Of a DNA stretch of 64,000 nt, positions 12,989 to 64,000 are shown in pieces. Position numbers and translations under genes: made by a program. The DNA is taken from positions 42,902,632-42,966,631 of the forward strand of contig CP154954.1 of the NCBI GenBank assembly GCA_039621445.1, written 5' to 3'. The notes under the pieces are model-generated. The model made no database searches. It was given only the letters and a program-made list of their open reading frames with translations, and was not told the origin of the DNA. Each line of letters begins with the position of its first letter. Positions within the stretch are counted from its first letter, which is position 1. The stretch comes from Euglena gracilis. Taxonomy: Eukaryota.

Positions 12989-15900
12989 TTTGCAACAGCA
13001 AAGGGTATTCTTGGGGCATGTTGAGAGCTGAAAAATATCAAACCCCTTGGGCTCCAAAGACGTTTCAGGAGGCCAAATCCTTTTGCTTCTCGACTGTAAA
13101 CCCTTTGTCAATAACAAAACCCCTCATGCCACCGATACGTTTTGGGGGGCCAATGGCTTTTGTTTCTCAACTTCTTGACGGCCCCAAAATAACAAAACCC
13201 CTTGTCACGCCGATGCGTTTTGGGGGGGCACTCCTTTTTGTTTCTCAATTGTCCAAGGGCTTTTTGACGGCCCCAAAACAACAACTCCCCTTGTGCCACT
13301 GATACGTTTTGGGGGGCCAATACCTTTTGTTTCTCAATTGTGCGAGGGCCCCAAAATAACAAAACCCCTTTTGCTACCGATGCGTTTTGGGGGGCCAATC
13401 CCAAAAACCCCTTGTGCCACCGTTTGGCCCCAACCCCCCATCAGGTCCGAATTATTCAGCCACGAAGAATTCCAAACTGGGTGGGAATTGCCCGCCCCCC
13501 CCCCTCTTCCGACTCTGCCATTTTGCCGGGGTCCAAAAATCAATTTTTCGAAAATATCTCGAGAAAACGTACATTCTTTTTTCCAGAAATGTCGGTCTGC
13601 CGAAATGCACAAGGCCCTCTATCACCCCCGTTCGCCGTTTTGGCTGCCGACACGCAACGTGCTTTTGCAGCCCAAAACGGCAATTTTGGGGAGTTTTTCA
13701 AAATCGATTTACCCAAAATATCTCGACAATGAAGCAAAATCAAAGGAAAAGTCCGGTGAGCAAAAATGAAGCCCTTGGAATGCCCTATCCAACCATGGTT
13801 TACTTTCCCCCCAACTCTTCGTGCAGCCCAAGTTACGGCCATTTTTCAGTGAGGACAACCGGAAAGGAGAAGTGTATGTTGACCAGTTTTTTCTTGCACG
13901 CCAGCATGAGGTTGGACGATTTTGGCGGGCTTGTTTCGGTTCGCAAAGAATGCCCTGTGATCATCTTCAAGGGCAGTGCCGAGGGACCCGTGGCACGTTC
14001 CGCTGCTGAATTGGCAGGTCCTTGTGCAGGTTTGTCACGCTGGAATTTTCAAAGAAACAAACGATCATTTCGCTCAGTGACGTTCACCACAGCCCTCCCC
14101 CAATCGAAGGTACCCCCCCCCCTAACTGACAGCACCCCCCCCCCTAATTGAACCCCCCCTTTTTGACCAAAAGGGTGGTCCCGTGGAGAGGTCCCACGGT
14201 CAATTGGGGGGGGGGGTATGATTGCCACATGTCTACAAACCGTTTTCAACACTTTTTGGCACTTTTATTTTGGGTCCCCAGACGCCGGGTTCACGCCCCA
14301 GCCGGCTTTCTGAACGCCGGTTCGGGCGGGAAATTTCCTGCCCGAACTGGCGTTCTGAATGCTGGTTCGGGCGTGAAGCCAGAGCCCGAATACACAGTTT
14401 AACATAAATTCTGGGATGGCAGAGCTTAAAATTGCTTGGGGGGCAAATGTGGTCGACTGGACCAGTTGGCGGTGACCACCAATGGCGAGGTCACACTGGT
14501 CACACGTGACCCGTCAAAACTGCCCCGCGACTGCCAGCCTCTGTCTTGAACATTGGGATGTGGGGTATTGGTTCATCATGTGGTGAGACGTTATCCTCCT
14601 ATTTTGTGGATTGAATACCACTACCCCCCCCAAATAACCCCCCTTTCGTCCTTTGGCCAGGACCCCAAAGGGCCACTTAGGGGGGAGGGGTCACTCAGGG
14701 GGGGGTCAGGAGACAAAATCTTGATGTCACCCCCACTATTTTTGGGTGGATTTTTGTGTGAAATTTGTGATCTACACCATTTTTTCTGTCAGGTCAAAAA
14801 AAATTGCAGAAAATTTTCAAAAAAATCAGGTGTTTTATGACCATTTTTACTTACAAAAAAAATTGTCCATGATCCAGCCGGACCTTCCGGCGAACCCCGC
14901 AGGGCCACTTAGGGGGGGGGGTCGTTCAGGGGGGGGTAATGTAATCTCCCCCACCGGACGATTTGAATAATTGGCGGCCACACCGGCGGCTGAGGAATCA
15001 CGGCTCAGCGATCTAAAAATTGGCGGTTGCATTTTCTGACCCTTTTGCAAATTCGAAATTCTACATTTCAGCTGCCATGTTGCCCATCGATCGAGCTTCA
15101 GTGCGTTCAGCAGTGGCCATAATTTCACCCATGTTGCATGGTATTCTGTTTCAGAAATTGCCCAAAATTGGCCAGATGAAAATTATTGCACAAAAAACCC
15201 CAATTCTACTACAAAAAAGGGGTGGCGGACGCCGGTTCTGTCCTGAACCCGGCGTCCGGGGACGCCGGGTTCAGGACAGAACCGGCGTCCGCCACCCCTT
15301 GTTTAAAGCGGCGTTTTAGAGACGCCGGGTTCAGGACAGAACCGGCGTTCACCCCCTTCGGGCCAGGGAGCACTTAGAAGTACGTTCACTAGCGTTCCCC
15401 TTTAGTCCCATGGGGGAACAGCCAAAACGTCCCAGAGCAAATTCTGAAAAAAAACTAGAGGATTCAAACATAAAATCTCTTAAACTCTAAAAAAGCCATG
15501 GGGGTTCCAGCCGTATTCCCCAACCGTATTTCTGACAGAAAAAAACCCAGCAGGTCCAGCCAAAATTTCCCAACCGTGATAATAAACCCAGCGAGGTCCA
15601 ACCATAGTTTCCCCTCCGTATGTCTGAAACAACCCAGGGGCTCCAGCCAACATTTACCAGCCGCAATTCTGAAAAACGCACGGGGGGTTCCAGCCAGCAT
15701 TTAACAACCGTATTTTTAAAAAACCCAGGGGGGTCCAGCCAACATTTCCTAACCGTAATTCTAAGAAAAAACCCAGGGGTGGGCAGTCAACATTAAACCG
15801 AATTTTTGAAATAACCCAGGGCGGGTCCAGACAAAATTTCCCTGCCGTATGTCTGAAAAAACCCAGGGGGGGGTCCACCCAAAAATCCCAACCGTACGTC

Positions 15901-16933
15901 TGAAAAAACCCAGTGGGTCCAGCCAAAATTTCTGTAATGTGTCTCCTTGCCGGCAATATGTTTTGCCCTGTAATCAGTGCAGCTGTAGCAGCTGCAGCTG
16001 TGTATGCCTAGCAATCCTCCCCCCCCCACCTCAGAAACTGCAAAACGCTTGCCGTCAGTCATCCATGATATTTTGCACTCAGCAATTGTGCCTTTTATCC
16101 CCTTTCATCCAAGGAGATTTTTGTTTTTGGGGTCACATTGGCACATTTTTTTACACAAAATACAGTCCCAAACCGGACGCCGGGTTTTGGACAGAACCGG
16201 CGTTCCTAACGCCGGGTTTTAGGACAGAACCGGCGTCCGGAAAACCCGTGGGGGGGGGGGACGCCGGTTCTGTCCTGAACCCGGCGTCTCAAACGCCGGT
16301 TTAATGTCAAATACCTCCCAAAAACTGCTCGGATATGATTACAGCATGTCCATAAACCCTTTTGGACACTTTTTGGCACTTTTTATTTTGGGTCCCCCAG
16401 ACGCCGGGTTCCCGCCCAAACCGGCATCTGGATCTGGGCATCATCATCATCATCATCATCACCCGGAGCCCCCAGACACGGTTTCAAAAGTATTTTTTGT
16501 CAACCTTGGCGACAACCATTCAGGTGTTCAACATATGTTGGCACGAGTCAAGATGTTCAGAGAGTCAGGATGTGCTGGGGGTCCTGGGGAGGTCGTGGGA
16601 GCCCTGCGTGGGGTTCTGGGTCTTGGGAGGGTCCTGGGGGTCTTGGGGGTCCTGGGGGGTCCTTGGGGGGTGTTAGAATATTTCATATTTGTTTGAAGAC
16701 CCCCAGATTATTTTGTATACCATGCCCTACTCTTCCCTCCTTAGGCGCCTTCTGAGCCCCATGGGAAGAATACGGGAGGGAATAGTACGGGGGGGGGGGG
16801 ACCCGGACCCCCCCCCCGTACTGTTCCCATGGGACCTCAAAGGAACACCCAGGGTCAACCCTTCGGTGGCAAGGCAAAAGAAGCGGACACAACTCTCTCT
16901 TGCGGCACCATCCTTGCGCTTGTTTGCTTGTTC

Positions 16934-19400: not shown

Positions 19401-21919
19401 CATCCGTCTCAACTGGCTCAACAATGAAATGAATGAATGAAGGTGGATACTTTGTAAAAAAAAAAACACAAACTACGATTGAAACCGTGTATTGGGGCTC
19501 TGGCCTCACGCCCGAACCGGCGTCCAGAACGCCGGTTCGGGCGGGAAGCTAGAGCCCCTAATCCACGGTTTCAACAACTGTGTCCAGAACGCCGGTTCGG
19601 GCAGGAAGCTATGTTCCAGAACGCCGGTTCGGGCTGCCGCCCGAACCGGCGTTTTGGAACACGGCTTCACGCCCGAACCGGCGTTCTGGACACAGTTTTC
19701 GTATCAGAGTGTTGTCTGCAGGGTTTTTTCATGACCCGGGAGGAGGGGGGGGTCCGGACCCACCCACCCACCCCCCAGGGGGGGAGGGGCGGGGTGCTCG
19801 GGGGGACCCACGTTTGGGGGTCGATTTTGGGTCCAAAAAAAACTGGTCCCTAGGCATGGTGTAGGAGGTTAACATGTGGAATTGTCCCAAAACTGCCCCC
19901 CCCCCCAGGGGTGCCACAAGGGGGTGTCGGGGGGGGGGGTCGCCCCCCCGCGATTTTGGGTGAAAATTTTTTTCGAATCTGGTTGGAACTCTTTATGGCT
20001 CCCAGAATTGTTTTTAAATTGAAACCCCCAAAACTCTGTCAACTTTATTGCAAAGGTGTTTATTTCTGCCCATTTTCACACTTTTCTTTCAACGCAACCC
20101 GTTACCGTCTCGCTGCCGTTCGGGCCACAATGGGTTTTTGTTCACAAACTACCCCGAAGAAGCAGTTTTTGCACTGAAACTTGTGTCCTAGGCACAGGTT
20201 TCACGCCGTATCAAACGAGACAATTTTTCTTGGCCAATGATAATTCCTCCCTCCATTTTCAGCGCAAAATCAGACCCTGCATTTTGCAGATGTGCATTAG
20301 GTCCTACGCTTTTCCCAATGTGGCCCACTTGTGCAGTTCAGGACTCTTCAAGGGGGGTCTGGGGACTGGTCAGACTCGTCAAAAAACGACCAAATGGCCA
20401 ATTTTGGCCAAAAAAATGGGTAAAGTTGGCCTGATTTTTTTAAAAAAGTTTCGACGCTTTGCACCGAAATTTTTTCCCCTGTCCAGTTTAGTTCGCCTTA
20501 TTCTTCAAGGGGGGGGGGACCCAGCGTTAAAAACCTTAAATCCGTGACCTCCCCCCTCCGGACTCAGGACAAAGCCGGTGACCCCCTACGATGGACTCAG
20601 GGTTACCCCCCCCCCATATTGTCCCAACCACCTTCCCACTGGGACCCCAAATGGACAATATGGGGGGGGCAATATGGGGGTTCCAAAGGAAATTTCATTG
20701 GCCGAGCCAAAAAAAACCCGTCGGCCGGGCCGAGGGACAATATGGGGGGGGACAATATGGGGGGGGGGGGGTGGTACAAAGCCGGTGAGGGGGGGTCATG
20801 GTCATGGTTTTGGGCAAAAAAAAATTCGGTTTTTTCGAGTTTTTTGGCCCAGAACTGACCCAAAACGCAAGGGTTTCGGGCCCAAAACGGGGGGCCGGGG
20901 GTCGAAAAACGCTCTTTTTCGGCTCGAAAACACTTTTTCCGGGTCCGGGAGGCCAAAAAAACATGGTTTTGGGCAAAAAAAAAAATCGAGGTTTTTCCAG
21001 TTTTTTTGGCCCAGAACTGACCCAAATGCAAGTATACCGGGATCATTTGTCATCTGTTGTGAGTCAATGTGCATCATCAATGTTTAAGGAGTAAATTTTC
21101 ATCGGTCAAATGGTCAAGTGGTATATGACCCAGCTATGAATGCTGCCTTTCCGGAGCATAGCACATGGTCGTATTTGTGTCATGGTTCGGCATGCCGTGC
21201 CGAGGGGGTCGGCCGACCGGGGGGGGGGGGTACCCATTTTGCCGTGCCGAGGGGGGGGGGGCACGCCGAACGTCCATTATCTTGCCGCCCTTCGGGCGGC
21301 AGAATGGATGCAAGAAGTTGACTTTCCATGGAATGTTCGCCCCCCCCCCCGAGAAAAAAATGATCCGGCACCTATGCCCCCCCCAAACAACAAAACATTG
21401 TTCAATTGCCTACCAACATCACAACCATGCCACAAAACATCCCCAAGAGTTTGTCGAATGAGGGGCGTGCTTCACAGTATCAGGGTACAGGACAGACCAG
21501 AAACTACAATGCAACTCTCATCCCTGGAAAACAACAAATTTTATTCCGACTACTTTAGATTAGATAACCTGACTCTAGGTCTTGAAGCCTGGAATGTATC
21601 TTGGCACGTGACAGGGGAACATAATCAGAACGAAGTGCATGAACAAAATCCAAAGTCCATGGTTGATCCAAAGAATTGTCAACAAGGCGGGAGAATTTTC
21701 AGCCGTTTTGCAATGAAAGGAAAACTCTACTACAAAAAAAAGGGGTGGCGGACGCCGGTTCTGTCCAAAACGCGGCGTCCGGAACGCCAGGTTTTGGACA
21801 GAACCGGCGTCCGCCACCCCTTTTTTGTAGTAAAACCGGCGTTTGAGACGCCTGCAAAATCACCAGGTTTGATGAAATTTCATGACCCCCTCCCATGACC
21901 AAAAACCCCAACAATCCTG

Positions 21920-23090: not shown

Positions 23091-26000
23091 TGACTCCAAC
23101 TTCTTGTGGTGACACCTTCCATTTTTGCCTTGCGGTAAACAGCGGATTTTCACCCTCTCCCCTCTTCAAATTGACCATGTCACTGAGGTTCCAAATAGCA
23201 CCCAATTTAACTTTTTTTTTGCCTGTACACTTTGTGCTCTAACACATGACCCAAACAATGTTCTGGATGGCAATCCGCGCCATATTACCATTGGTGGTTG
23301 CGATGGTGAGGTTGTGTCTGACCATTCCGATCTCTTCCGCAACCGCCGAGCGTTCATTCTCCACCCTGCGGCGTTTGAAAACTTACCTTCGCTCCCAAGT
23401 TGGACAAGCACGCCTTGGATAGCATGGAAAAGTGGTTGACAAAATTTCCTTCAAAGATGCAATCCGCCCCAATTTTTTTTTGAGGATAAGGAAGATTTGT
23501 ATAGACACCTTACTTGATGAATTCATCTTGAAAAACACAGCACGCTCTTCGACCTTTGCACTGTCCCACTGGTTGCGTCCCAGCTTGCCTCCCATCAGTT
23601 GCTCGTGGCAATCCATGCCCTTTAGTGGAGGAGAATAGTTTGACAGTTAGAATTTTTTTTTACCGTGGCTGGAAAAATTTTTCAGAAGTCTCGCCCCCCC
23701 CCCCTGAGAAAAATTTGTTTCTACACCAATGCCCGTGATCCAAGTTGAGAGTAATGATGAGGCAGCCACCAATACCGATGCTTGCAAGGACAATGGCTTT
23801 GGGATTACGCCCAAGGGATAGACGATAAGGCACACTCCAGGGCTGGATAGAGGTAGAGGTAGAGGTCAAAGTCCTCTACCTCTATCTGACCCACCTCAAC
23901 CTCTACCTCTACCTCTATGTCACCTCTATGTCCATAAAATGTCATAAACTGGCACCAATGAGGGCCACAAAACGCTCCAAATGCCTCAAATTTGGCAAAT
24001 TAGCATCTCAACCCATCATATTTAGGTTAGGAATGAGAAAAAATATCTGGATGGGTGGTTTCAAAAATTGCCATAAGAGATTTGTGACAAGAATGGCCAA
24101 TTTCGGATTTTTTCCCATAAAATTGCCTTCGTTCGGCATAAATTTTCTTTGATAAGCCACTTTCCTTTTAAGTTTGACATTGAGGTGACATGTAGAGGTG
24201 GAGGTGACCTCTACCTCTACCTCAACCTCTACCTCTGCCTCTATCCCTCTACCTCTATCCAGCCCTGCACACTCAGACACATCCCCTTCCTCAAAGAACA
24301 ATCTGACTCCCGGCAAAAGGTCCCAGACGAGGCATGGGCGTAAAGAGACGTTTTCAATGCCGATGACAAAGGGACAAAAAAATAAAGAGCCCAAAGACCT
24401 GGACCGGCAGGCCATGCGGTGAAGAGCCCGCATGAATTGAAGAAAGCATGGTTTTGGCCAGGGTCGGTCGGCATGGGTATTTCCTACTCAGTTTTTTTTT
24501 TTGCATTGTAGCGCCGTAGGCAACTGTTCGGCGGCCCTAAAATAATTCAAAAAAAACAAAAGTGTGCAACTCATTTTGTGTATGTTGTGCTAATTTTGTA
24601 TGTCGCGCACTTTTTGACAACTACCGACCCACGACCGAGGGCAACCAAGGGTGACCGAGGCGACTGTGGGACGACCATGGTCGACCCCCACAACCCCCCC
24701 CCCCAGGCCAAAGTTACCCCGCCCCCCGGTCCCCCCAAAGCCCCCACGATGCTTGGCCACAAGGCGATTTTCGGTTTAGAGCCTAAGGGTGTGGATGCCC
24801 ATTTTTTACCATACCATTTTACCATGTTGCAGTCTATTTCTTCGTACAATGGCCAAGAAGGCAGCACACACTATGGACAGAATGTTGCCCCATCCCCCAA
24901 AAGTTGCTGAATTTTTAGCCACACTAAAACAGGGATGGACTAAAAACTTGAACCCTGTTCAGGATCCCTTGCATGGTAGCCTGGCAGAGGCAACCAAAAA
25001 GAAAGCATCCGGAACGGAAGGAACGGGGCAAGCCGCATATGCACACCTTCTCAGGTTTGAGGATGTGTGCATTGCGCTTCTATGACGAATTGCATCCTTT
25101 CCTTTGTGCATGAGGTGCTTGGGTGATTGATCCCCCACTGTTGTTTGATGGGCAAGCGGTCATGTCCCCCCTCGCTCCCCTTGCCGTGATATGAATGGTG
25201 GGTGAAAAAAAAAGCCCCAAAATGGTGGAACTCTCAGTTCGCTACTGCAAGGCAAGCAAAGCCGAGCAAGACCCTGCCACCGATGGAACAAGTGAGGTTT
25301 CAAAGTCAGTGCCCACATGCAATGGCTTGGGCATCGGCAGTAACCCTTACCAGCCGTGTCATCGCGCAGCAGCTGAACCACAGACGGCAGGCCTCACCAT
25401 GCAGCAGGTTGAGCATTGGGCATGAGGAGGGGCGGGGGGCTGCGCGATCATCGGTCTCCCACCGGCAGAGGGCGAGAGGGTGGGGACGGTGGGCTGGTGT
25501 GAGGCGGGGGGTGAGAAAGATAGTGACGGTTTTTGGCCAGCGAAAAGCGCGTGCTTTTTCGCACTTGGAATTAGAATGTTGGGAAATCTTTGGATTTCTC
25601 CAGCACTCAAAAAAAAAAGCCCTCAATGAGCCAAAGACCTCAACTTCACGATTCAAGCTGACTTGAAGAAAAATAGAAGGGTTTTTCTTCCACTTCAAGG
25701 ATGTTTTGCAACGGAGTTTTTTTTTGGGTGCCTGTTGATATGCTTGGATCACTTGGGTGCCGCTCTCTCTTCACAATGGCGGTTCACGGCAGCATTTCCT
25801 TTTCCAAGACTTTTTCTTCATTCTTAGGTCCCCATTCGAATGATTTGTGAGATGATTCGGAAAAATTTGTTGTCATAAAAAAAGAGACTTCAAATGATTC
25901 AATCCCAAAACATATTTCCCATTAAATATCAACACTGCTAATAAAAAATAACAATACACCTGTGAAATAAAATAACAATAAAGCATAGGAGTGGTACACA

Positions 26001-38700: not shown

Positions 38701-41700
38701 AAGTTTTGTCCGGTTGGGGCAATTATTTTTGCCAGCTGTGGGCAAACATTTCAGACGCTAGGTGTAAGAGCTGTTTCTTTGTTTGAAAAATAATTAAAAG
38801 CTATTATTTCATTTCAAAAGCTGTTTCTTTGGTCGTTTGCAATTTGTGTGGTGGCAGTTTTTTTTCCCCTGATACTCCCAATTTTTCACGGTTTTTTCCC
38901 CTTCCTTTCAGTTTTTCAACTCTGCAATACACTTGGGCTGGAAAATGCAATGAGTTCTGGCCATTTGCAGAATGAGTTGATTTCTTGATGAACCTGTATT
39001 AAAGACTGAAGACATTGTTCAAAAGGAACCATTCTTTCTCATGAGCTTTTGCACATACTTGATACCATTTTTTTTTTCTTCAGCAATGCTGTTATTTTTA
39101 TTCCAGGTTTTTTTGCAGTTCTTGTATCCTCTGACACTAATCCCCCTGTCTTTTTTTGTTCCTTTTGTACCTTTCAACATGCAAAACACACCCCATTCTG
39201 ACACGTACCATTACGGTGGGGATTGGGGCTGTGGTGGTGGTTCCTTCGCCCACGACGTCCACATCAACCCCGGCGCCTACTCTGAGACTGAATATCCCTA
39301 CGTGAGCCACATGGGGTGGACTGGGCAGGCAAAAAAAATATGGAAACATTCATCCCTGCCTTTAATTGGGGAGCCCAGCCCTGACCTTTCCATCATCAGG
39401 TTTTCTCAACGGTTTGTTGGGTTATTATTTTGAGAATTTCCATATCTTCTCATCGGTTTGTTCGGCTATTATTTTGAGAATTTCAACATTTCACCCCAAA
39501 ATGTCCCAAAAATGGCTCAGTCAAAACAGGCCAAAATGCAACAAGGCCAGGCCAATACAGGGTGATGGAGGGCCCCTGGGCCCTTATTTTAGGTCCCCTG
39601 ATTTCCTTTGGTTGGCCACCATTTTGGAAATACTTCAAAATTTCGATTTTCTGACCCCCGAAATGGCCCAAAAACAAATGAGTCGAAACCGGTCAAATGT
39701 ACAATACAGGCTTCGTTTCAAGGAAGTGGACACCCCCGGGGGGGTGCTATGGGCAGGTGGGGGGGGGGGGCAGGACACCTTCGACCCCCCTAGTTGTTTT
39801 GACCCTAGGCTTTTGGGGTATGTAGTGCTGCAGCACACCCCCCGGCACCCAAGATGCCAGGGGCCTGAAAATGGCCATTTCCAATGGAATATCGGCTTGG
39901 TTGGCAGGCACCGTGGTCCAAAACCGACCCCCCCCCCAGGGGGTGTGCCTGCTATGGGGCACCCATAGCAGGCACCCTTCCTGCCGGGGTTGGTAAAATG
40001 AAGCCTGGTACAGTGTTTGTCAGAAGCTGCTTCATTTTTGCCCGAAGAGTCTCTTTTGCTGTTCTGTCCCGCTGTCCCCATGGCAGGCCAAGACTCAAGT
40101 GCATACCCCTAGCCCTGGATGAAAGCCTCCTGGGGCGCACAAGGGCATTCCCATTTTGGGGTTTTCCCTTCCCCTTGTCCACACGCTCCCTTTGCACCTT
40201 GCCCAACAACCCACCTCATGGTCTCCCAACCGACCCCGCCGGCGAGACACCGAGTGCGACACGGGCCGCGCCACCGTCGTGGCGAAGCTCACCCGGTGGC
40301 AGTTTGTACCCCTGCCGGACCGGCCGGAGGAACAGGTGACGGCCATCAAGACCGCGCTGTGGACGGGGGGCCCCGTGGCGGTCGGCGTGGCGGCCGGCCC
40401 CCAGTTCCAGGCGTACACTGGGCCAGGGAACCCCAGCAGGTCCCCCCCCACGGGTTGGGGGGCGGTCGGACACCTTAACCCCTGCCGCTCCTCCTCCATG
40501 CCCTGCCTAGGGTTGCAGGGGTTAGCTTGGCTGCTGGCTCTTTCCCCCAAATGACTTTGCCCCTGGACGGATCTTTTTAGCCCCTACCCCCTGCAAAGTT
40601 ATGTGAGCCAAAACCAACGTGGCCCATTGGCCACTTTTCCTAAAAGAAGTTTGCTGTCACATGACGTTTTTTAATAAATAATTCCGACATAATTCTCTGC
40701 TTCTCATGACACCCCCCCCCCCGGTCGGAGGACACCTTTTCGGAGGTTTGACCAAATTTTTGGTCCCGGCGCGAAGCGCCGGGACGAAAAATTTTGCCCA
40801 AAAATTGGCCAAAAATTTGGCCAAAATGCCATTTTTGACACTTTTTGGACAAAAATTTGTCAAAATTGCCCAAAATTTTTGGCGCGAAGCGCCGGAAGGG
40901 AAAATTGGGGCATTTTTGGGTGGTTAGGGACCCGGGTGCCCACCAACTTTTTTTTGACCCCATGTCCAACGACCACCCCCCCGGTCAGAGGACACCTTTT
41001 TGGTCACTACCCTATGTCCAACGACCACCCCCCCGGTCGGAGGACAGAGGTTACTGGTCGTTGGACATAGGGGGGGGGTAATTCCGACATAATTCTCTGC
41101 TTCTCTTCGTTGGACAACAGAACACAACGATGTTTCAGACCATTTTTGCTCTTACCACCATCTGATTTTCAAAAATGATCATATTTCGTCACGTTTTTTT
41201 TTCTCCACCAAAGTTATTTGGCGGTTATCTGTGGAGGATTGATGCAAATCCTTGAGGTTCCGTGTTGGTATTACACAGATGCTGGAATTGAAATGCCTTT
41301 TGTCAATAGTGTACTTTGTGGACCGGAACTTATGATGAAAAGAGTATCCTGTCGGTGGGCATGCTCTCTCTCCATTGCTCAGCCCACCGCCAAATTGCGT
41401 GTTCCAGTGCCCAAGGTTTTTTTCCTTTTCCCCCCCAAAGTTTTCCAAATGTGAATCACAATCATATAGTCAAGCAAACACCCTCCCCTTGAAAATATGC
41501 TTCTGCAACGTCCCTGCATCCGAGGCATCTTCAATTACATGGACCCAGGAGAGGTTGCTCGGCGTCGTGTTACACAACAATAAAAAATATTTTCACAGTT
41601 CCATTGGAGGAAAGTGGTAGGGAAATTGGTCGATTTTTCTCACCACGGGTCCTGAAAAAAATCAAACTTGCAAAAATGCGGAAACGGCTGAAGAAAGCAG

Positions 41701-43705: not shown

Positions 43706-45334
43706 TCGGTGTGGATGCATCCTTCAGGTCAATATTTCCCTCTGGCGCAGAAGGAATTTTGTGCTGTGGTGAGGTGTAGGGGGTCCGAAACCCCCCCCCC
43801 CCCAGGTGCTCTCATCCTGCCCTGCCTGACCCCCCAGTTCCTCCTCCCCTGCAGTTGTCCGAGGGTCCACGCCACGCCGATGCCCCGGAGGCCACTGCCC
43901 CATTGGGCGGGGATGCCCTCTGTCTGAGCCCGCCCCTCCCCTCCTGGCCCCTCCCGCGTCGCCCTCCCCCGTCCTGCAACCTGCTCTGCTGGGTTGGGGT
44001 GGGGGCTGGGCCGCTGACCAGTTGCCCCCCCCCCACCCCGGCCAGTGTTGCCGGCTGGCCACCCCGCCCAGGGCCCCCCCGGCACCGTGGACAGCGTGGA
44101 GAGCAGTTCCAGCAGTTCCAGCAGCTCCAGCAGCGAGGACGGTCCACAGCAGCCTGTGAGGAGCGTACCAAGCGGTGTTGTTGTTGTACCAAGGGGTGTT
44201 GTTGCCCCCTCTTCCCTGTTTCCGGGGGGGGGTCTGACCGAGAACAATTGCCAACGGTAAAATTTCTGTGAGGGAACAAATTAGACGAATCCTTAAAATG
44301 CCGGGAGAAATTCTGAACGCTCGCTTAAAACGGCTGGGAAAGAATTCTGGATGAAAATATCTCGTAAACCCATTTTCTCAGGAAAAATACAAATGAATTT
44401 AGCCCAAATCCCGATGTTTTCCAAAATTCAAAAATTGGTAAAAATCCCAAGTTTCAAATTGTATAATAAAAGCAAAGAAATGACATTTTGAAGGATCAAT
44501 GCTCTGAACGAATGATTTGGAATAATGATGCATTCCAGCGAAGCTCCAGAGAAAATTTCTGGGCGGTAATTGGAGGCAATTGGAGTTGCTTAAATTTGCG
44601 GGGAAAAATCCTGGACAGATCCTTAAAATGGCAGGAAACATCCTGGACAAGATTTTGTCCAGAATTTTCCCCACCACAATTTTTCCCGTTCAAGTCCCCC
44701 TGGCACTTGCCAGTTCCCCGTCGCTTTTTCATGGCCCAACTTCGTGAGGTCAAGAGTCAGATAATTTCTTCAGTCAATCTGCAGTTAGTTTTTGTGTTCC
44801 TGGCCATGTGACGAGGCTTCTTTTGACTCAGAAGACCCCCCTCCCCAGGGGTGTAGGGGTGTGGGCCGCAGGTCCGGGTATGGGTTTCGGCGCGAAGTGC
44901 TGAAAAAAAAATATTCAAAAATACCTTTAGACGGTCCGGTTTTCCGTGCGGTCAGTGTCGACCGCTCCCCGGGGGGTCCCATGCTGGGTTGGGTGGGTGG
45001 GAGGGGACATCCGGGGATGCAACACCCCTTTTCCCCAGGAGAGGCCCAAACCCACCACTCTTCAAAACCAGCCCACCATTCTCCCCGAGGTTTGGTGGTG
45101 GGGTCTCGGACAGGTATTTTTTCATGTTTTTGTATTTTTTTAAGTTTGGGTCAGCACAGTCATTCAGGTTGTTTTGTTGGTGGTTCTGGGCTGGTTGAAT
45201 TGGTCGGTGGACCTCCAGTGGCAAGGGGCAGTGTGGTGGGCAGATTTCAAACAAATGGGTCGTTTGGTGTGGGAAATCATGCCCATCCCCCATCCTCTGG
45301 GGTCACCGAGTGGTTCAATGTTTCCAGTGCACAG

Positions 45335-45600
<266 letters not shown>

Positions 45601-46033
45601 GCGACCCCAAAATGTTCTCCATCGGTTTCTTTGTCATCATTATCAATCATGACTGACTCCGTTTGGTCCCTCCCGGCCCAGCGACCACAGCTCTCCCCGT
45701 TTTTCCGGACCAGAGCTCAGGTCTGCCGGATGTGGAGGGGATGCGGTCGGCCACCGGTGCCTGCACCCCGCCACGCCATTCTCAGGCTTTCCCCAACGGC
45801 GACTCGGGGCTCAGACCGCTGCCGCCAGCCCCGAAGGCGATGACGCGGAAGACAGTTCCCCAGGCAGCGGCAGCCGCCAGGCAGCAATTCCAGCCCGAGT
45901 TTTTTTTTTCCATGGAGGTGGGGGCTTCTCACAGACACCGTTGCAAACGATGTTGAAAGCAGGACAAGGTTTAACCTCCAAATATAAGCAACCCCTCTCT
46001 CTTTGCAACCCCAAAATGCAAGCAAACCCTTTG

Positions 46034-50510: not shown

Positions 50511-53241
50511 CTTAGGCGGCCTAACTCGCACTTAAGGTTTTCATTTTTAGCTTGCGCTTTGGCGCAAATTTTCGATTTCGTTGAGACCCGGCGGTAGAAC
50601 CCACCCTTTTGACCCTCTGGTTCCGCGGAGACCCTCCACGGTGGCGTGTGCATCATTTTCCGATGTCGGAACCCGGGGAACAGGCCCAATTTTGGTGTTT
50701 TTCGGCCTGTGCACCATTTTTTAAAAGGTCCAAAACCCTGGGTTTGACCGCTGAGACACGTGAATTTTCCCAAAAATGGGCCAAAACCCCCGGTGTGAGT
50801 CCCTCGTTTTTGAAGCCTTGACAGTGTTCCCCGGATGGTGCCACACAGTCCGGGTGACAATTGGCCCTTTTTGTTGCTTTTTTGGCTCTGTGATATGTCC
50901 GTGAAGAGTTTGGTTGCTGAGGCATCCAGAGGGTGGACTCTACATGCACGTTGTGAAAAGTTGGAAAAAACGGCGTGTCACAGAGTTGTGATCCCTGGGT
51001 GCTTGAAGCGTGAGGAGCGGTACAGCGGGAACCACTCTGGTGGGGGGGGTTGGGGGGACTGAGGACAAGCCTAGGGACCTCTCCCAACGTCTGGTGAGCA
51101 ACGCCAGGCCCCACACTGCCGGGCACAGAAGGCAATGGTTAAGGACATTTGCGCTTAAGCGCAAATTTTTAGCTTGCGCTTAAGCGCAAGTTAAAAAATT
51201 TGCGCTTAAGCGCAAGCTAAAACAGAAGCCGCTGAGTTTATGGGAGTCCCTCTGATGTGTTACGGTGTGTCGGGGGCCCCTCTCTGAACGGCCAGAGTGC
51301 AGGCTTGGTGAGGAAATACCTTGCGCCGAAGCGCAAAGGACATGCCTACATAATGCACTGCTTGTTCATCCACATTACACGTCAGCCGCGTGTTTGCACT
51401 TCTCAGTTTTTTGTATGATGGTTTGCGCTTCGGCGCAAGGTATTTCCTCACCAAGCCTGCACTCTGGCCGTTCAGAGAGGGGCCCCCGACACACCGTAAC
51501 ACATCAGAGGGACTCCCATAAACTCAGCGGCTTCTGTTTTAGCTTGCGCTTAAGCGCAAATTTTTTAACTTGCGCTTAAGCGCAAGCTAAAAATTTGCGC
51601 TTAAGCGCAAATGTCCTTTTAAATGGCAGATGTATTTGAATGCCTTCGTGCTGTGTGAGAAGGTGGGGGATAGAGGAGAATGGTGAGGGGGGTTTGTGTG
51701 CTGCTGTGCCAGAAGCTGGGTTGGTGCTTTTGAACTATTCAGGTGCTGGGGAGGAAGTGGTTGTTACAATAAGACGAATGGTGGGCGGTAGGCTGTGGTG
51801 CCTCAGTGACCTTGCACTCGGTGCACAAAGTGGGGTTTTTGGGGATGTTGACAGAAAGGCTTTTTCTGCTGAACAATGCCTCCATCTGCCTGGTGGCATG
51901 TGGCTGTCTGGTGGGTTGCAAAATACCGAAAAAAGGCGTGTCAGCATGTCTTCCCTTCTCCGCCGCTGTTGATGGGCCCTTTCAATTTCTCAATTCCATT
52001 CGCTCATCCCCAAAGTTCTGTGCTTCAAATCCTGGGCGAGGAAAGGGGGGTGACGAGCTTCTTTAAAACACCCTTTCGACGCCTAAAACTGTTTCCTCGG
52101 CTGTGGTTCCCAGGGTTTATCTGGTACCTGTTCTTTTCCACACAGGTATTTTCCGACTTTTAAAAGTCGGCCAAAGAGAAGGGCCCCTCAGGCACGCTTA
52201 AGTGCGAGGCAAGTGGGAGGAACCTCCGGCACTGGAAGTTGGGTTTACAACGCATAGGACAAGGCACGTCTGGCTGTCAAGAAGTTGGTGGTTGTTTTCA
52301 CAGACCAGGGGGTTGGCTTCCTGTCCCAGGCAAGGCTTCCCTCCATCTGAGCTCTGTCCGCTCTGGTGATGAGATGCTTCCAGGACTGCTCTCTCCACCC
52401 GCAGTGATAAAAATGGAAAATACAACTTGATGGCTGTTGCGCCAAAGCGCAATGGGTAGGCTCATGAAGAATGGAAATTTAAGAGTTATATTGCGCCAAA
52501 GCGCAAGTAGAAATGCACTTTTAAAATTGTCAAAGCAACGTGGCTCTTGCGCCGACGCGCAATGTTGACCAGTTTTAAGTCAACGTGACTGAGAGTAGGC
52601 TTCCGTCCCCCTGTTCTACATTTTTGTGCTCCATCCCCTCTGGTGGTCTTACTCTACCAGGGCCGTTCTCTCCCTGCGTTGTGAGATAAGTTTTAACCAG
52701 TTATATTTGCGCTTCGGCGCAAGCCATGTTGCTTTTGCAATTTTAAAAATTGTATTTCTATTTGCGCTTTGGCGCAAGGTAACTCGTAAATTTCCATTCT
52801 TCATGAGCCCACCCCTTGCGCTTTGGCGCAAATGGAAACACACGTTGACTCAAAAGTTGTTATCATTGTTCAAATGCGGCAATGGTCACCCACGTGTTTA
52901 ATCACAAAAAAGTCAAAAATTTGCGCCAAAGCGCAAATGGTTTTATTTTTTGTAATTTCAAAAATTTGCGCCAAAGTGCAAATGAGTAATGGAGTCCCCT
53001 CGTTTCATCACCCGCCGCCTTGTGTTCATGCACACTGGGACTCGGGAGCGCTGTGCCTGTGGACCGTGGAGTTCCTAGTCGTTGCTTTCGTCCTCAGGCC
53101 CTGGGGTGCAGGGAGACACTATTTTCAGACTGTCTCGAGTCTCAGGCCACGGTGGTCGAAAACCAAACTTTTTTTGGGATTTGCGCGTCGGCGCAAATTT
53201 ACAGTCACTTTCAAAGCTAAGTGCGAGTTAGGCCGCCTAAG
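50511..53241. mobile_element. 2.7-kb non-autonomous TIR element, copy 1, 5-bp TSD
   Basis: TIR CTTAGGCGGCCTAACTCGCACTTA; TSD AGTGG at 50506-50510 and 53242-53246; colinear with 56152-58631. Confidence 0.9.
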
Positions 53242-54237: not shown

Positions 54238-54405
54238 CAGGCTTCTTTTTAAGTCAGAAGACCCCCCCCCCCGCCGAAATTTTTTTGAAAATTGTTTTTA
54301 ACGGGCCCGATTTTAGCCCCCCCCCCCCAGGGGGGTCCTGCGCCACCTGGGTGGGTGGGGGGGGGACCCCCCCTCCCCCCCCCCGGGGTCTTAAAAAGAA
54401 GCCTG
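54238..54405. mobile_element. hAT-type MITE (CAGGCTTCTTTTTAAG family), 8-bp TSD
   Basis: Same TIR as 8220-8509; TSD ATTGGGGG at 54230-54237 and 54406-54413. Confidence 0.9.
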
Positions 54406-58948: not shown

Positions 58949-61441
58949 ATGGCCGGGGGGCACTGGCTGCTCGCCACCGCCCTGCTCGCCCTCTGCAGCC
59001 CCGCGGTGGCAGACCACGCTGCTGTATTTGTCATTTCTAAGGCCCATCCGGGGACGGTCTGCAGGGACCCACCCCCCACTCCCTGGAGGTTTGGCGGCAA
59101 GGCCTGCGCCCGCCAGCCTGGCCGCATTGGGAGTGACTCCCTCTCCACCCGTCATCTTGGCCCTCCCGAATTTTTTTGGCGGTTCCCAAAATTCCGCAAA
59201 AAAAAAACCGCCCGGTGTTTTCCCTCCGCCCCGCTTTTCTACCAAGTATTTTTTTTGAACAAAATAGTGTGGCAGGTTTGCGGTTGTGATTGTGGACGCT
59301 GATGTGTATTCACTAACCGCAGTTGACCTTGGGAGACAAGAGACCCTTCCCCCCCAGGGGGCCCCCCAGCGGTGGACGCCCTGGCTTTATGGCCCCGTCC
59401 CGCTTCCGAGTGTCCGGCAAACCGTAAATCAACGGCGGCGTGGGGCAGACCCCCTCACAGCGGCGGACCTCGCCGCGCTGCGGGCGCGGGCCGCGCCAGA
59501 GGGCTGGACGTTCGCCGTGGGGCGGGGCGTCGCTTACGCCACAGGGCCCCCATCCCCCGGGGTCCCGCCAGCCGGCCAGCCGGCCCCCTTTCTCCCGCCA
59601 GCCCAACTTCGCCCGCCTCTGAGCCGGACTCCCCCGGGGACCGCTACGCGACGCCCCGCCGTGGGTCGCAACGCCGCCACCGGCCGCCGCCTCGCGGACC
59701 TCACCGGCCTCGCCCCGCCGCCGGACTTTGTGGAGGCCGCCGCGCCCAGGGCGGCGATGGGGGAGGGGGGGAATGGCAGGGGGCGGCGTTGCTCTTCCTT
59801 CCCCCCTTCGGCTGCCCCGGGCGATGCCGCCTGCGGATGCCCCCCACAAGGATCCCACCCACTCAAGTGTCCTGCGGGTTCGATCCATTTTTGGGCGACT
59901 TTCTCTTGGTACCTGAAAGATTATAAAACTTGAGACAATCCAGAAGATAAATGGAATTGGCGAAAAATGCCCCCTGTTTTTGAAAGTGGACGTACCCCTT
60001 CCCTTCCGGCCCCCCCAATGTTGTTGAACATGGGGAGGGCACAAAAGATGTTCCAAAAAAAGCTCAATATTTGGGGGTTTCCTGGCTTATTTTGGAATAT
60101 GTTGCCTGACGTATTTTTTCCCATTTCAAACTTGAGCAAGTTGAAATACGGATTGCAAATACTGCAAACAAAAGATACCAAAGTCCTGAATGGTATAGTT
60201 TATAATATTAAGCACTGCGAACATGGCAATCTTCGTGTTGAGGAAAACCCCTTCACAAAAAACACAGAACCCTCCTCCCTGAGGGTCTTGATATTCCACC
60301 CCAACGTAGAACCAGGGTTGTTTTCAGGGGGCTGGGGTTGGTTTTGTTCCAGAATGTCCCAAGCACTCAAATTGCATCAATATTTTGGATCTCCAGTTCC
60401 CCCCTATTTTTTTCCCGATTACTTTCCTGGGCAGGGGTTTTTTTAGTCGTGGACCCCCGGGGGGGGGGTAGGGTGGATGGGTCCGGCCGAGCCCCCCCCC
60501 CCCCTGGGGGGTGTCCCCCCGGAGGGGGGTGGGATATACTTTTTGGCGCCGCAGGCGCCGAAAAAATTCTAGTTTTAGCACTTTTCGCGATTTTTCGGCC
60601 ATTTTTTTTGTGGGTCCCCCGGGACCCCTCCCTGGGGGGGGGGTGGGTGGGTGGGGGGGACCCCCCCTCCCCCCGGTCTTAAAAAAACCCCTGTTCCTGG
60701 GAGTGCAATCCAAATGAATGCATCTCCAGGTGTATTGCACTGCAAATGTTTCCTAGAACCTGGAGGCCTCCCAACCCCCCACACACCATAACCTGGGAGG
60801 TGCCCCCCCCCCCAGAGGGTGTCCCAGATGTCCCCCTGAAAGCGACGCTGCCCGCCACAGAGACGACGGATCTGGCCAGCCCGCTGCCGGAGGAGTTTGA
60901 CTGGCTGGTCTTTGTGCAGCAGTGGTACGGGGTCCTGGGGCAGCCTGACCAGACGGCAATTGTCCCGCCTTCCGTCTGGCAGAGCATCCCGTCAATGAGT
61001 TGCCAATTTCCCGTTGTGTGGTTGGCTTGTGTTGTTCTCCATCGTTCTGAAGTTGACAGCATGAGGTTAACTAAAAGTTGTTGACCCGCCCCCCACAATG
61101 GAGAGTCTGTGGAATGGAGTGGACAACCCCCCCAGAGGAGGGGTTCCTCCATTTTCGCCTGAAAGGTTTTTGGGTTGGGTTAGTGAGTGAGTGGGTGGAG
61201 GCTCAGAAAGAAACTTTGGCATGTGTATGCGTAGTGTGTGTGCATTGTGTTGTGTGTGTGTGTGTGTGTGTGTTGTGTGGTGTATGTTGTGCTGTGCTGT
61301 GTTGCTCTGCACTGTGCTGCGTTTGGATGAGTTGAGCTTAGTGGTGAATGTGCATGATGTGAGTTGTGTGAATGTGCACATTTTGTGGGGGGTGTGAGTG
61401 TGTGAGTGAGTGAGTGAGTGAGTGTGTGTGTGTGTGTTGTG

Positions 61442-61518
<77 letters not shown>

Positions 61519-63811
61519 CACTCGTATATCTTATAGAATGTGTCAGTTTACCCCTGTCGGCAGCGACATCCCTGTGAGAGACCAGGGACAATGCGCCGCC
61601 AGCTGGGCTTTCGCCACTGTGGGGATGATGGAGTGGGTGCTGAAGATCAACACCGGTGTCACAAACAGCCAGGGATGCCACAGAAATTTGGGTGCCACCG
61701 CTGTTTCGTGTCTTTTCTCTTCCGGATGGAATTTGCTCCAGGGGGCATTTCTAAGTGAACAATGACGTGTCGGGATTGTTGGATGTTGGACCTCAATCAG
61801 TCACAGACACACGCATAAAACACACACACACACATACACACACACACACACACACTTAAAACACACACACACACACACACGTGCACACACTCACACAAGT
61901 GCAGACAGCATACATCTCTCTAAGGTTTTGCGAACCCCCCGGGGGGGGGGCGGCTGCAGCCAGCCCCAATTTGGGCCCAGCCCAGCCGCAGCAGCCCCCT
62001 CCCCCCGGGGGGGGGGGGTGCTGCCAGCCCTAGCTAGCCAGCCCCTTTTTTGGGGGGTCCAGCCCAATTTTTTTTTGAAAAACTGTGTTCAAAAGTGGCC
62101 AAAAATGGGGTTTGGGGGGCGTTTGGGCCATTTTTGGGGGGTTTCAGATGCATCATTTTTTCAAACCTGTGTTCTGCAGGACATTTTTGGGCATTTTTTC
62201 CGATTTCAGTCCAGCTCGCCTTGGTTCGGGTCCAGCTGGGGTCCACCCCCCCCCTGGGGGGGCGGGCTAGCCAGCCCAAATTTCTAGCCCTAGCCCAGCA
62301 ACCCCCCCCCCCCGGGTCCTTAAAGAGGTGTATGGCGGACAGAAGGCAGGCAAACCTGATCTGGGCCTCCCTGTGGTTGATCTGTCCGTGCAGCACCTCC
62401 TGTCTTGCCGGCCCAACCGAAAGCAGACGGCCCAAGGCAGTCCCGGAATTGTCGGGCGCAGCCTGGCCGATGAGTGCGCCCCCGATCACCCGGGGATGCG
62501 ACCCGGGGCCCCTTGCCGGGGACGGCTGCCGCGGGGGCTGGTTCACCCCGCAGATGCTGCTGCAGCCCGGGGCCATCGAGGACCGGCGCTTCCCGTACGC
62601 CGGCCGGGACGTCGACTGCGTGACCACCGACCTCTGCCCGGGTGGAGGGGACGCGGCGCTTGGGGAGTGTCTGTCCCTGGGGGAGAGGAGCCGGTCTGAA
62701 TGGACCCTCCGAGAAGTTTCAGCCGATGCCGAGCAACGTCTTGTTGCCCAGCAAAAAGAACCGCAAGTGAGCCAGCCATCCCCCCCAGGGTGTCAAGTGG
62801 GGGAGGGGAGGGGGGTCAGACCCCCTCCCCCCCTTCGGACCGAGGGGGGGGTCCAGGACCCCCCAGGAACCCCGGAGAGGCAGGGATAGATGGGAAGCCT
62901 TGAAGGGGGGGTCGGACACCCTCCCCCCTACCTCGAAACTGAAGGGGGCTGGGAAAGTTTTCGGTTTTGTGAACAGGCAAAGGCCCGAAACGCAGGCCAA
63001 AATTGGGCAAAAATCCCTGATTTTTTATTGAAACTAATTCCAAAAATGCCCATTTTTTGAAAAATTTTACCCACTTTTTTTCACGTAGAAAACACCAAAA
63101 CATCAAAGAATGCAATGGCAGGGGGGCCCAGACCCCCCCCTACCACCCACCTCAAAACCGAAGGGCTTCCCATCTCTCCCTGGGGAGGGGGTCCAGGCCC
63201 TCTCTCGGGGGGAGGGAGGGAGTCCAGGCCCCCCCTCCTCCCCGTTCACCTGATGCCCTGCCCCCCACCCCCTGCAACCCTCCCCCCGGCCCTGCCCGGT
63301 GGCCAAGGCGTTCGGCCACGAGTACATCCCCCTGCCCCCGCAGGAGGAGGGGCGGGTGCATGCCATCAAGCGCATCATTTGGAACGAGGGCCCGGTGGCG
63401 GCCGCAGTCCAGGGTTCGATACAAGGGGGGTGTATGGGGTTTAGGCTGCCCCCCACCCCCCCTCCTCTTGGACCGAGGTGTCCAGCCCCCCCCCCCCCCG
63501 CCTTGCAAGGGGTCCAGATTGACCGTGGAGGGTATCCGGGTCCCCCAAAAGGTCAATTTTCTCCTTCTGGCACTTTGCGCCCTTTTTTTTTGGAATTTGC
63601 CCAAAACGTGCCAAAATGGCACTTTTGGCTGACTTTGGGTGGCAAAATTTTCCGCCTGGCGTTTTGTGCCGGGCCAAAAATCGGTCACCCGGGCCATGCC
63701 ACTGTTTCGATGGGGGGGGTCCCTTCCCGTTCCATGAAGAGGGCTCCCCACCTGCCCTTATATTGAGCCCTGCCGCAGTCGCAGTGAACCGCGCCTTTCA
63801 GGCCTACACTG
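58949..63811 (+). CDS. Papain-family (C1A) paralogue with catalytic Cys replaced by Ser; runs off the window end
   Basis: Exons 58949-59011 (signal peptide MAGGHWLLATALLALCSPAVA), 59448-59519, 59664-59743, 60844-~60930 (LPEEFDW), 61562-61666 (VRDQGQCAASWAF), 62379-62429 (DLSVQHLLSC), 62521-62635 (GCRGGWF, FPY), 63294-63406 (GPVAAA), 63778-63811 (FQAYTG); aligns colinearly with the upstream protease. Confidence 0.92.
59520..59663 (+). other. 144-nt nonconventional intron with 11-bp TIR and 7/8 TSD
   Basis: CCGTGGGG[CGGGGCGTCGC...GCGACGCCCCG]CCGTGGGT; removal gives WTFAVGRNAAT, matching paralogue [11 protein letters not shown]. Confidence 0.88.
60432..60693. mobile_element. hAT-type MITE, 8-bp TSD
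   Basis: CAGGGGTTTTTTT / AAAAAAACCCCTG; TSD TTCCTGGG at 60424-60431 and 60694-60701. Confidence 0.88.
61230..61515. repeat. (TG)n-rich microsatellite
   Basis: Interrupted TG runs; a (CA)n tract follows at ~61820-61895. Confidence 0.9.
63407..63777 (+). other. Nonconventional intron with 18-bp imperfect TIR and perfect 8-bp TSD
   Basis: CCGCAGTC[CAGGGTTCGATACAAGGG...CCCTTATATTGAGCCCTG]CCGCAGTC; removal gives GPVAAAVAVNRAFQAYTG. Confidence 0.9.
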
Positions 63812-64000
63812 GCACAGAAGCTTCTTGCCCACACCGAAAACAAACTCGCGCGCACACACACATGCACAGGCAAAGTCTATCAGGTAAAACCCCCCAAGTG
63901 TAAAATCAGTTTCATATTTGGGCGGAAATTTCAAGACCCCCACGGGGGGTTTAATCATCTGTCCTTTTCCATTTTGTGCCTAGTAGTCCTCTTGTGTTGC

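Follow-up and report, generated by a model that had tools for sequence, protein, structure and literature searches.

Nonconventional introns of euglenids, their CAG/CTG motifs, the repeats at their junctions and the hypothesis that they descend from MITEs have all been treated in print (PMC3935182, PMC11282704, PMC12501133, PMC12621601). According to the portions of these papers that address the matter, the proposal of a MITE origin dates back to 2014, when no transposon was known in euglenids, and a study from 2025 still describes the origin of these introns as unclear, with MITEs as a hypothesis only (PMC12501133). In the main texts covered by the literature search, no transposon family is shown to be the source of euglenid nonconventional introns, and hAT elements or a duplication of 8 bp were not found to be linked with such introns; the supplementary direct-repeat figures of PMC12501133 may bear on this point. 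The same 2025 PNAS study on Euglena used knock-in mutagenesis to define the nonconventional code, 5'-N3-CDG...CH'G-N5-6|purine, in which the donor spacer of 3 nt is described as strict, while the acceptor spacer measures 5 nt, with 6 nt being tolerated. As set out in the relevant part of PMC11282704, removal of the conventional introns precedes that of the nonconventional ones, which occur as full-length RNA circles and not as lariats; the responsible machinery is given there as unknown.

Two further systems have to be considered. The introners of Micromonas, Aureococcus and dinoflagellates are portrayed in PMC11282704 as short DNA transposons that have TSDs and inverted repeats at their ends and become introns on insertion. 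They are spliceosomal, with GY-AG sites contributed by the element or the TSD, and the element is removed together with one TSD copy. For hAT elements, 8-bp duplications and YARNG ends are listed as features (PMC3014272), and the ends given for Ac/Ds are C/TAGGGATGAAA, likewise with 8-bp duplications (PMC3260210).

The intron described here is placed by the published code at 63407-63777 (+ strand) of a 64-kb stretch of Euglena gracilis DNA, the whole of which was analyzed and is referred to as the window. It is an unusually clean case of the MITE origin already proposed for euglenid nonconventional introns. Very probably, a hAT-like MITE inserted into an exon of a papain-family protease gene, and nonconventional splicing of the Euglena type now removes the element along with one TSD copy. 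A single locus unites an intact TSD, inverted ends that coincide with the CAG/CTG core and scarless removal in transcript-like contigs; the same protease locus (63402-63780) also offers an empty paralogous site and nearby siblings with 8-bp TSDs.

With the nonconventional introns as characterized in PMC12501133, this intron shares the lack of GT-AG ends, CAG at +4 to +6, CTG at -8 to -6 and a purine as first base of the following exon, as well as a terminal helix (here a 12-bp stem) and a direct repeat at the junction. Unlike the introns described there, it keeps a perfect 8-bp TSD, 18-nt inverted repeats and TSD-flanked relatives nearby. The introners of PMC11282704 are matched in all the properties named above except for their splicing: the Euglena intron has no conventional site pair, and constant distances to the terminal helix determine where it is cut. 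Finally, hAT MITEs such as maize Ds1 (PMC3260210, PMC3014272, as far as the features given there extend) have in common with the element the 8-bp TSD, the CAGGG-type (YARNG) ends, a length of a few hundred bp and a non-coding body. In contrast to these, removal takes place on the RNA level by a lineage-specific system, and two families of sibling elements end in CAGGC.

Two papain-family paralogues

Self-tblastx, Pfam and tblastn revealed two papain-family (Peptidase_C1) paralogues on the + strand of the window. Exons of paralogue A lie at 38127-38267, about 39245-39301 and 40243-40419, and those of paralogue B begin at 61541 and continue until the window ends. The introns of B are numbered in order, i4 being the element-bearing one. 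It separates an upstream exon piece at 63294-63406 (+; 63292-63400 in the contig alignment), whose start follows from fitting the preceding intron to the code at offset 2, from a downstream piece at 63778-63811 (+; 63772-63812 in the contig alignment), which is followed by the next nonconventional intron, beginning gca CAG. When five exon pieces of B are joined, they form a single open frame of 146 codons, and the active-site exon matches Peptidase_C1. With the element retained, the frame hits a stop at 63764-63766 (ORF 63254-63766). A protein search with the exon at 63287-63409 gave 13 candidates, none of them with E <= 10.

In paralogue A, the exon at 40243-40419 is colinear with B and reads 17 residues unbroken across the insertion site, from 40369 onward. 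An earlier note on this DNA, made from the letters alone, had claimed that the upstream protease encodes the equivalent peptide without interruption at about 40370-40397, and the ten-residue stretch is indeed encoded at 40369-40398 (+), inside this exon. Not only i4 but also i1 and i3 of B are missing from A. Near residue 86, A carries an intron that B does not have; an intron at the position of i5, following YTG, is common to both genes. The insertion-bearing exon is 46% identical over 59 aa between A and B. Since the paralogues are thus old, the empty site in A does not by itself tell whether an intron was gained or lost; it is the intact TSD together with the sibling elements that speaks in favor of intron gain.

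At the position of the catalytic Cys of A (38157-38159), paralogue B has a Ser codon (61601-61603, in QGQCAASWAF). Judging from this substitution, B may be a serine-type or an inactive papain homologue. The Ser-bearing paralogue is still present in transcript-like contigs.

Anatomy of the element

The sequence CCGCAGTC occurs twice, at 63402-63409 and at 63773-63780 (both +), bracketing a MITE-like element of 363 bp at 63410-63772 (+) that makes up the body of the intron. Both copies agree in 8 of 8 positions, which bears out the perfect 8-bp TSD noticed earlier. The repeat extends by one more base (G at 63401 and 63772); as the G at 63772 is the last base of the element and belongs to it, the duplication proper measures 8 bp. 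Under the published code, CCGCA of the 5' copy is exonic and its GTC represents the 3-nt donor spacer, while CCGCA of the 3' copy represents the 5-nt acceptor spacer and its GTC is exonic, beginning with the required purine.

The element starts with CAGGGTTCGATACAAGGG and ends with CCCTTATATTGAGCCCTG. These 18-nt ends (63410-63427 and 63755-63772, +) are inverted repeats that match in 15 of 18 positions, the first three bases of the 5' arm being the CAG and the last three bases of the 3' arm the CTG of the splice code. A search for the 18-mer CAGGGTTCGATACAAGGG with at most three mismatches hit exactly two places in the 64-kb window, namely 63410-63427 (+, 0 mismatches) and 63755-63772 (-, 3 mismatches), compared to an expectation of 0.04; two matches were obtained in 0 of 100 shuffles. 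On the RNA level, the three differences between the arms become U-G, G-U and C-A, so that two of three are wobble-compatible, as had been stated beforehand. When 63392-63792 was folded as RNA, the first 12 bases of the element paired with the last 12 in a single unbroken stem, both in the MFE and in the centroid structure. The terminal stem in the MFE structure includes both G-U pairs (z = -3.95), and an equally good fold was reached by none of 100 shuffles.

CAGGG at both tips of 63410-63772 corresponds to the YARNG terminal motif, and the combination of an 8-bp TSD with YARNG ends is the signature of hAT elements; the element is therefore called hAT-like, an affiliation that these two features suggest. 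The duplications found here seem not to follow the nTnnnnAn preference of some hAT elements, which would count against a hAT origin.

A second copy of 63410-63772 was not found in the 64-kb window, where merely 99 bp at 40756-40853 resemble the AT-rich interior at 72%. Rfam returned no matches for the whole window. A metagenome scan with a degenerate 18-mer covering both arms yielded 59 stretches with one match each; since none of the 59 was hit when the whole element was compared with them by blastn, these 18-mer matches are attributed to chance.

Summed over the element, depth in the DNA sequencing run X1 amounts to 10-30x that of unique contigs, a value that is not a copy number. In one DNA contig of X1, sequence from near the 3' end of the element (63766) is connected with sequence from its 5' region (63428), with 40 letters containing a TIR-like CAGGATTCGAATATAAAGA in between, as if two related copies were adjacent elsewhere in the genome.

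Removal from transcript-like contigs

Four sequencing runs (of 24, all from one organism) were aligned on 61950-64000: X1, which is DNA, X15 and X16, which stem from two different studies and are guessed to be RNA, and X21, which is RNA. Record 19 of X16 (717 nt, 0 other letters, 0 gaps) consists of 62379-62428, 62520-62633, 63292-63400 and 63772-63812 in direct succession, and its loose ends run on into the exon ending at 61666 and into the next exon past the window. Record 12 of X15 comprises the first three of these pieces. For record 14 of X15, the listed piece stops at 63400 and a second piece is absent from the listing; as the X15 depth of 2.85 in the bin 63744-63812 equals 4.8 x 41/69, we infer that X15 makes the same jump from 63400 to 63772. 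X21, which is certain to be RNA and of which about 5% was read, contributed only 38 aligned reads and gave no joint at the listing threshold, too little to speak for or against removal. Contigs 5-8 of the DNA run X1 form a tiling path across 63278-63936 and contain the element.

The transcript-like contigs are hence short by 371 nt, i. e. the element (363) plus 8, as seen directly in X16 and indirectly in X15. At the predicted spliced junction, ...GCCGCAGTC is joined to GCAGTGAAC, and the reading GCC GCA GTC GCA GTG AAC that had been predicted for the cDNA is found in these contigs (X16 directly, X15 consistent with it). With X15 and X16 being RNA by guess, these data support the element at 63410-63772 as the body of an intron that is removed from RNA.

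This guess invites the objection that the joined contigs are DNA from an intron-less allele or a processed gene copy instead of spliced RNA, and DNA can occur in such runs. Yet, the contig skips at least three introns together, one of them without a junction repeat, and a fourth is implied by the upstream loose end. Moreover, there are 0 differences between contig and exons, X15 and X16 lack any coverage of the unique intron DNA (62640-62846), which is covered in X1, and a processed copy would itself require prior splicing. A DNA origin of the joined contigs is therefore scarcely credible.

Splice boundaries and the nonconventional code

Due to the junction repeat, the spliced sequence agrees with any of ten equivalent cut positions, from 63401-63771 to 63410-63780. 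None of the ten has GT-AG, GC-AG or AT-AC ends, and there is no offset at which GY-AG would be compatible with a removal of 371 nt. Offset 6, in contrast to the conventional pairs, fits N3-CAG...CTG-N5|purine exactly, with GTC|CAG...CTG|CCGCA|G. The intron according to the published code thus spans 63407-63777 (+, 371 nt). Among the ten equivalents, the cuts are accordingly expected at 63406|63407 and 63777|63778, and a circular intron generated by these cuts would join ...CTGCCGCA to GTCCAG (63777 to 63407).

At this code-fitting offset the intron begins with GT, and intermediate introns of euglenids are discussed in PMC3935182 in the portion bearing on them. It could thus be argued that the spliceosome removes the sequence as a conventional or 'intermediate' intron via the GT at 63407. 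However, a 5' GT combined with the removal of 371 nt forces a 3' CA, and a cut from the GT (63407) to the AG (63778) would take out 372 nt and break the frame, whereas the contigs are short by 371 nt. In addition, i1 of the same gene follows the same code with AG..TT ends. Measured by the usual consensus, GTCCAG is also a poor donor. Spliceosomal removal is consequently regarded as highly unlikely. The reasoning of the earlier note, in which GT-AG excision would shift the frame and a nonconventional cut would be needed to restore it, agrees with both the 371-nt deficit and the exact fit of offset 6.

In nonconventional splicing at this offset, the spacers of 3 and 5 nt add up to the 8-bp TSD, and the inverted repeats begin with this CAG and end with this CTG. 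It follows that splicing removes the element plus exactly one TSD copy and leaves no scar.

Other introns of the same gene

Intron i1 (61667-62378) has boundaries that cannot be slid and an exact code fit (AGC CAG ... CTG TGGTT | G). As these fixed boundaries match N3-CAG...CTG-N5|G exactly, the code holds in the present organism. The borders of i1 are AG..TT, its ends are CAGGGATGCC and GGCCTCCCTG (9/10), no TSD is left (0/8), and it is missing from paralogue A. Intron i2 (62429-62519, 91 nt) lacks conventional ends as well as the CAG/CTG code and shows only a short CAAGG/CCTTG pairing; a TSD comparison is not applicable to it. Intron i3, also missing from A, is placed at 62636-63293 (offset 2), where it displays a CGG/CCG variant of the code (GCC CGG ... 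CCG GCCCT | G), inverted ends matching in 10 of 12 positions and a duplication of 6/8. An 8-nt junction repeat, CTGCCCGG, is associated with i3 (62634-63299); its interpretation as a TSD was discarded in favor of the code-fitting CGG...CCG reading with the 6/8 duplication.

Together with i4 (exact code fit at offset 6), the TSDs of the three code-fitting introns that are specific to B thus score 8/8 (i4), 6/8 (i3) and 0/8 (i1), which makes i4 the youngest of them. The earlier description of i4 as a young intron holds in this relative sense, as a rank and not as a date.

Sibling elements in the window

The arrangement X8-CAG...CTG-X8 occurs 18 times in the window, compared to a mean of 1.66 (max 5) in 100 Markov shuffles. 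Six of the 18 cases have inverted repeats with at least 14 of 18 matches; in the shuffles, there was none even at a threshold of 13/18. Flank identity is bimodal among the 655 CAG...CTG pairs with at least 12/18, with six pairs at 8/8, one at 7 and five at 6, and the bulk at 1-3 around a background peak of 2/8.

Besides the element in i4, five siblings with inverted ends of 14-17/18 and a perfect 8-bp TSD were located, at 2700-3201, 6702-7145, 8220-8509, 54238-54405 and 60432-60693. In all six elements, the TSD is exactly 8 bp long. Their ends follow the pattern CAGG(G/C)..TT..TTTAAG, then G/C palindromes, the tips of the siblings reading CAGG...CCTG, with CAGGC in the two sibling families mentioned above. 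The resemblance of the five to 63410-63772 lies in the type of end, not in the body. Two related elements are nested in introns of the protease genes: one at 62881-63182 inside i3 of B (inverted repeats 17/18, duplication 6/8), the other at 39707-40007 inside an intron of A (13/18 and 6/8). The ends of 8220-8509 and 54238-54405 are identical. With regard to a transposase in the window, no Pfam family was found in 10 ORFs scanned, out of 14 ORFs of at least 220 aa.

These elements bear on the question whether i4 could be a nonconventional intron without transposon origin, whose 8-nt repeat and inverted ends arose, for example, by staggered-break repair or by selection for the splice helix. Short direct repeats are reported, in the part of PMC12501133 concerned with them, to flank 84.4% of all E. 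agilis introns including conventional ones; the code itself needs inverted ends functionally, so that selection could maintain them; and 63410-63772 is present in a single copy in the window. Against this, the 64 kb contain five more elements with ends of the same type, each flanked by a perfect duplication that measures exactly 8 bp; another intron harbors at least one related element (62881-63182), in a place where splicing does not require it; and in the X1 contig, two related ends from another part of the genome are adjacent. An origin without a transposon therefore appears improbable, and the insertion of a hAT-like MITE remains the preferred explanation.

Proposed insertion and splicing mechanism

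Following the preferred explanation, a short non-autonomous hAT-like DNA transposon (CAGGG...CCCTG, 8-bp TSD) would have entered the codons GCC GCA GTC of a B exon and thereby duplicated its target CCGCAGTC. The 8/8 TSD, the inverted-repeat ends and the five siblings all point to such an insertion event at 63402-63409. In the transcript, the splicing system may then recognize the helix formed by the inverted ends of the element, with CAG:CTG at its base, and cut on both sides of it, 3 nt ahead of CAG and 5 nt past CTG, before a purine. This would excise the element together with one TSD copy and bring back the original reading frame. Since 3 + 5 = 8 restores the frame, the insertion would have become an intron immediately.

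Conceivably, these steps are carried out by a structure-measuring endonuclease and a ligase rather than by the spliceosome. Such an enzyme pair, to which we assign roughly an even chance, is suggested by analogy, from the fixed distances to the helix and from circular products; it is the circular full-length introns reported for the nonconventional class that favor it.

On a more general level, the nonconventional code of Euglena could be an RNA-level mirror of the insertion of a hAT-type MITE, with CAG and CTG representing the tips of the transposon and the spacers of 3 and 5 nt its TSD. This idea is put forward tentatively, as one that we consider slightly less probable than its opposite. 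If it is true, any exon-landing element with a purine at position 6 of its TSD would be removed without a scar, and one still-active transposon superfamily would be the ancestor of most nonconventional introns that bear the code (in E. agilis, 61% of them). The splicing machinery would, in this case, have evolved or been recruited to measure from the terminal helix of a transposon. The relation 3 + 5 = 8 further predicts that, genome-wide, the lengths of the direct repeats at CAG/CTG intron junctions have their maximum at 8 bp, with an offset of 3/5, and it supplies a reason for the spacer lengths derived by mutagenesis.

Other repeats in the window

A 430-bp element at 23838-24267 has perfect inverted ends (18/18, CAGGGCTGGATAGAGGTA), and a 7-bp direct repeat, CACACTC, abuts both of them. 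Near-perfect long palindromes at 15272-16277, 19525-19688 and 51223-51536 contain several 18/18 CAG...CTG pairs without a TSD and probably belong to another class of repeat. Inside or beside introns of the protease genes, there are long tracts of (TG)n/(CA)n, at 45300-45620, 61180-61530 and 61790-61905.
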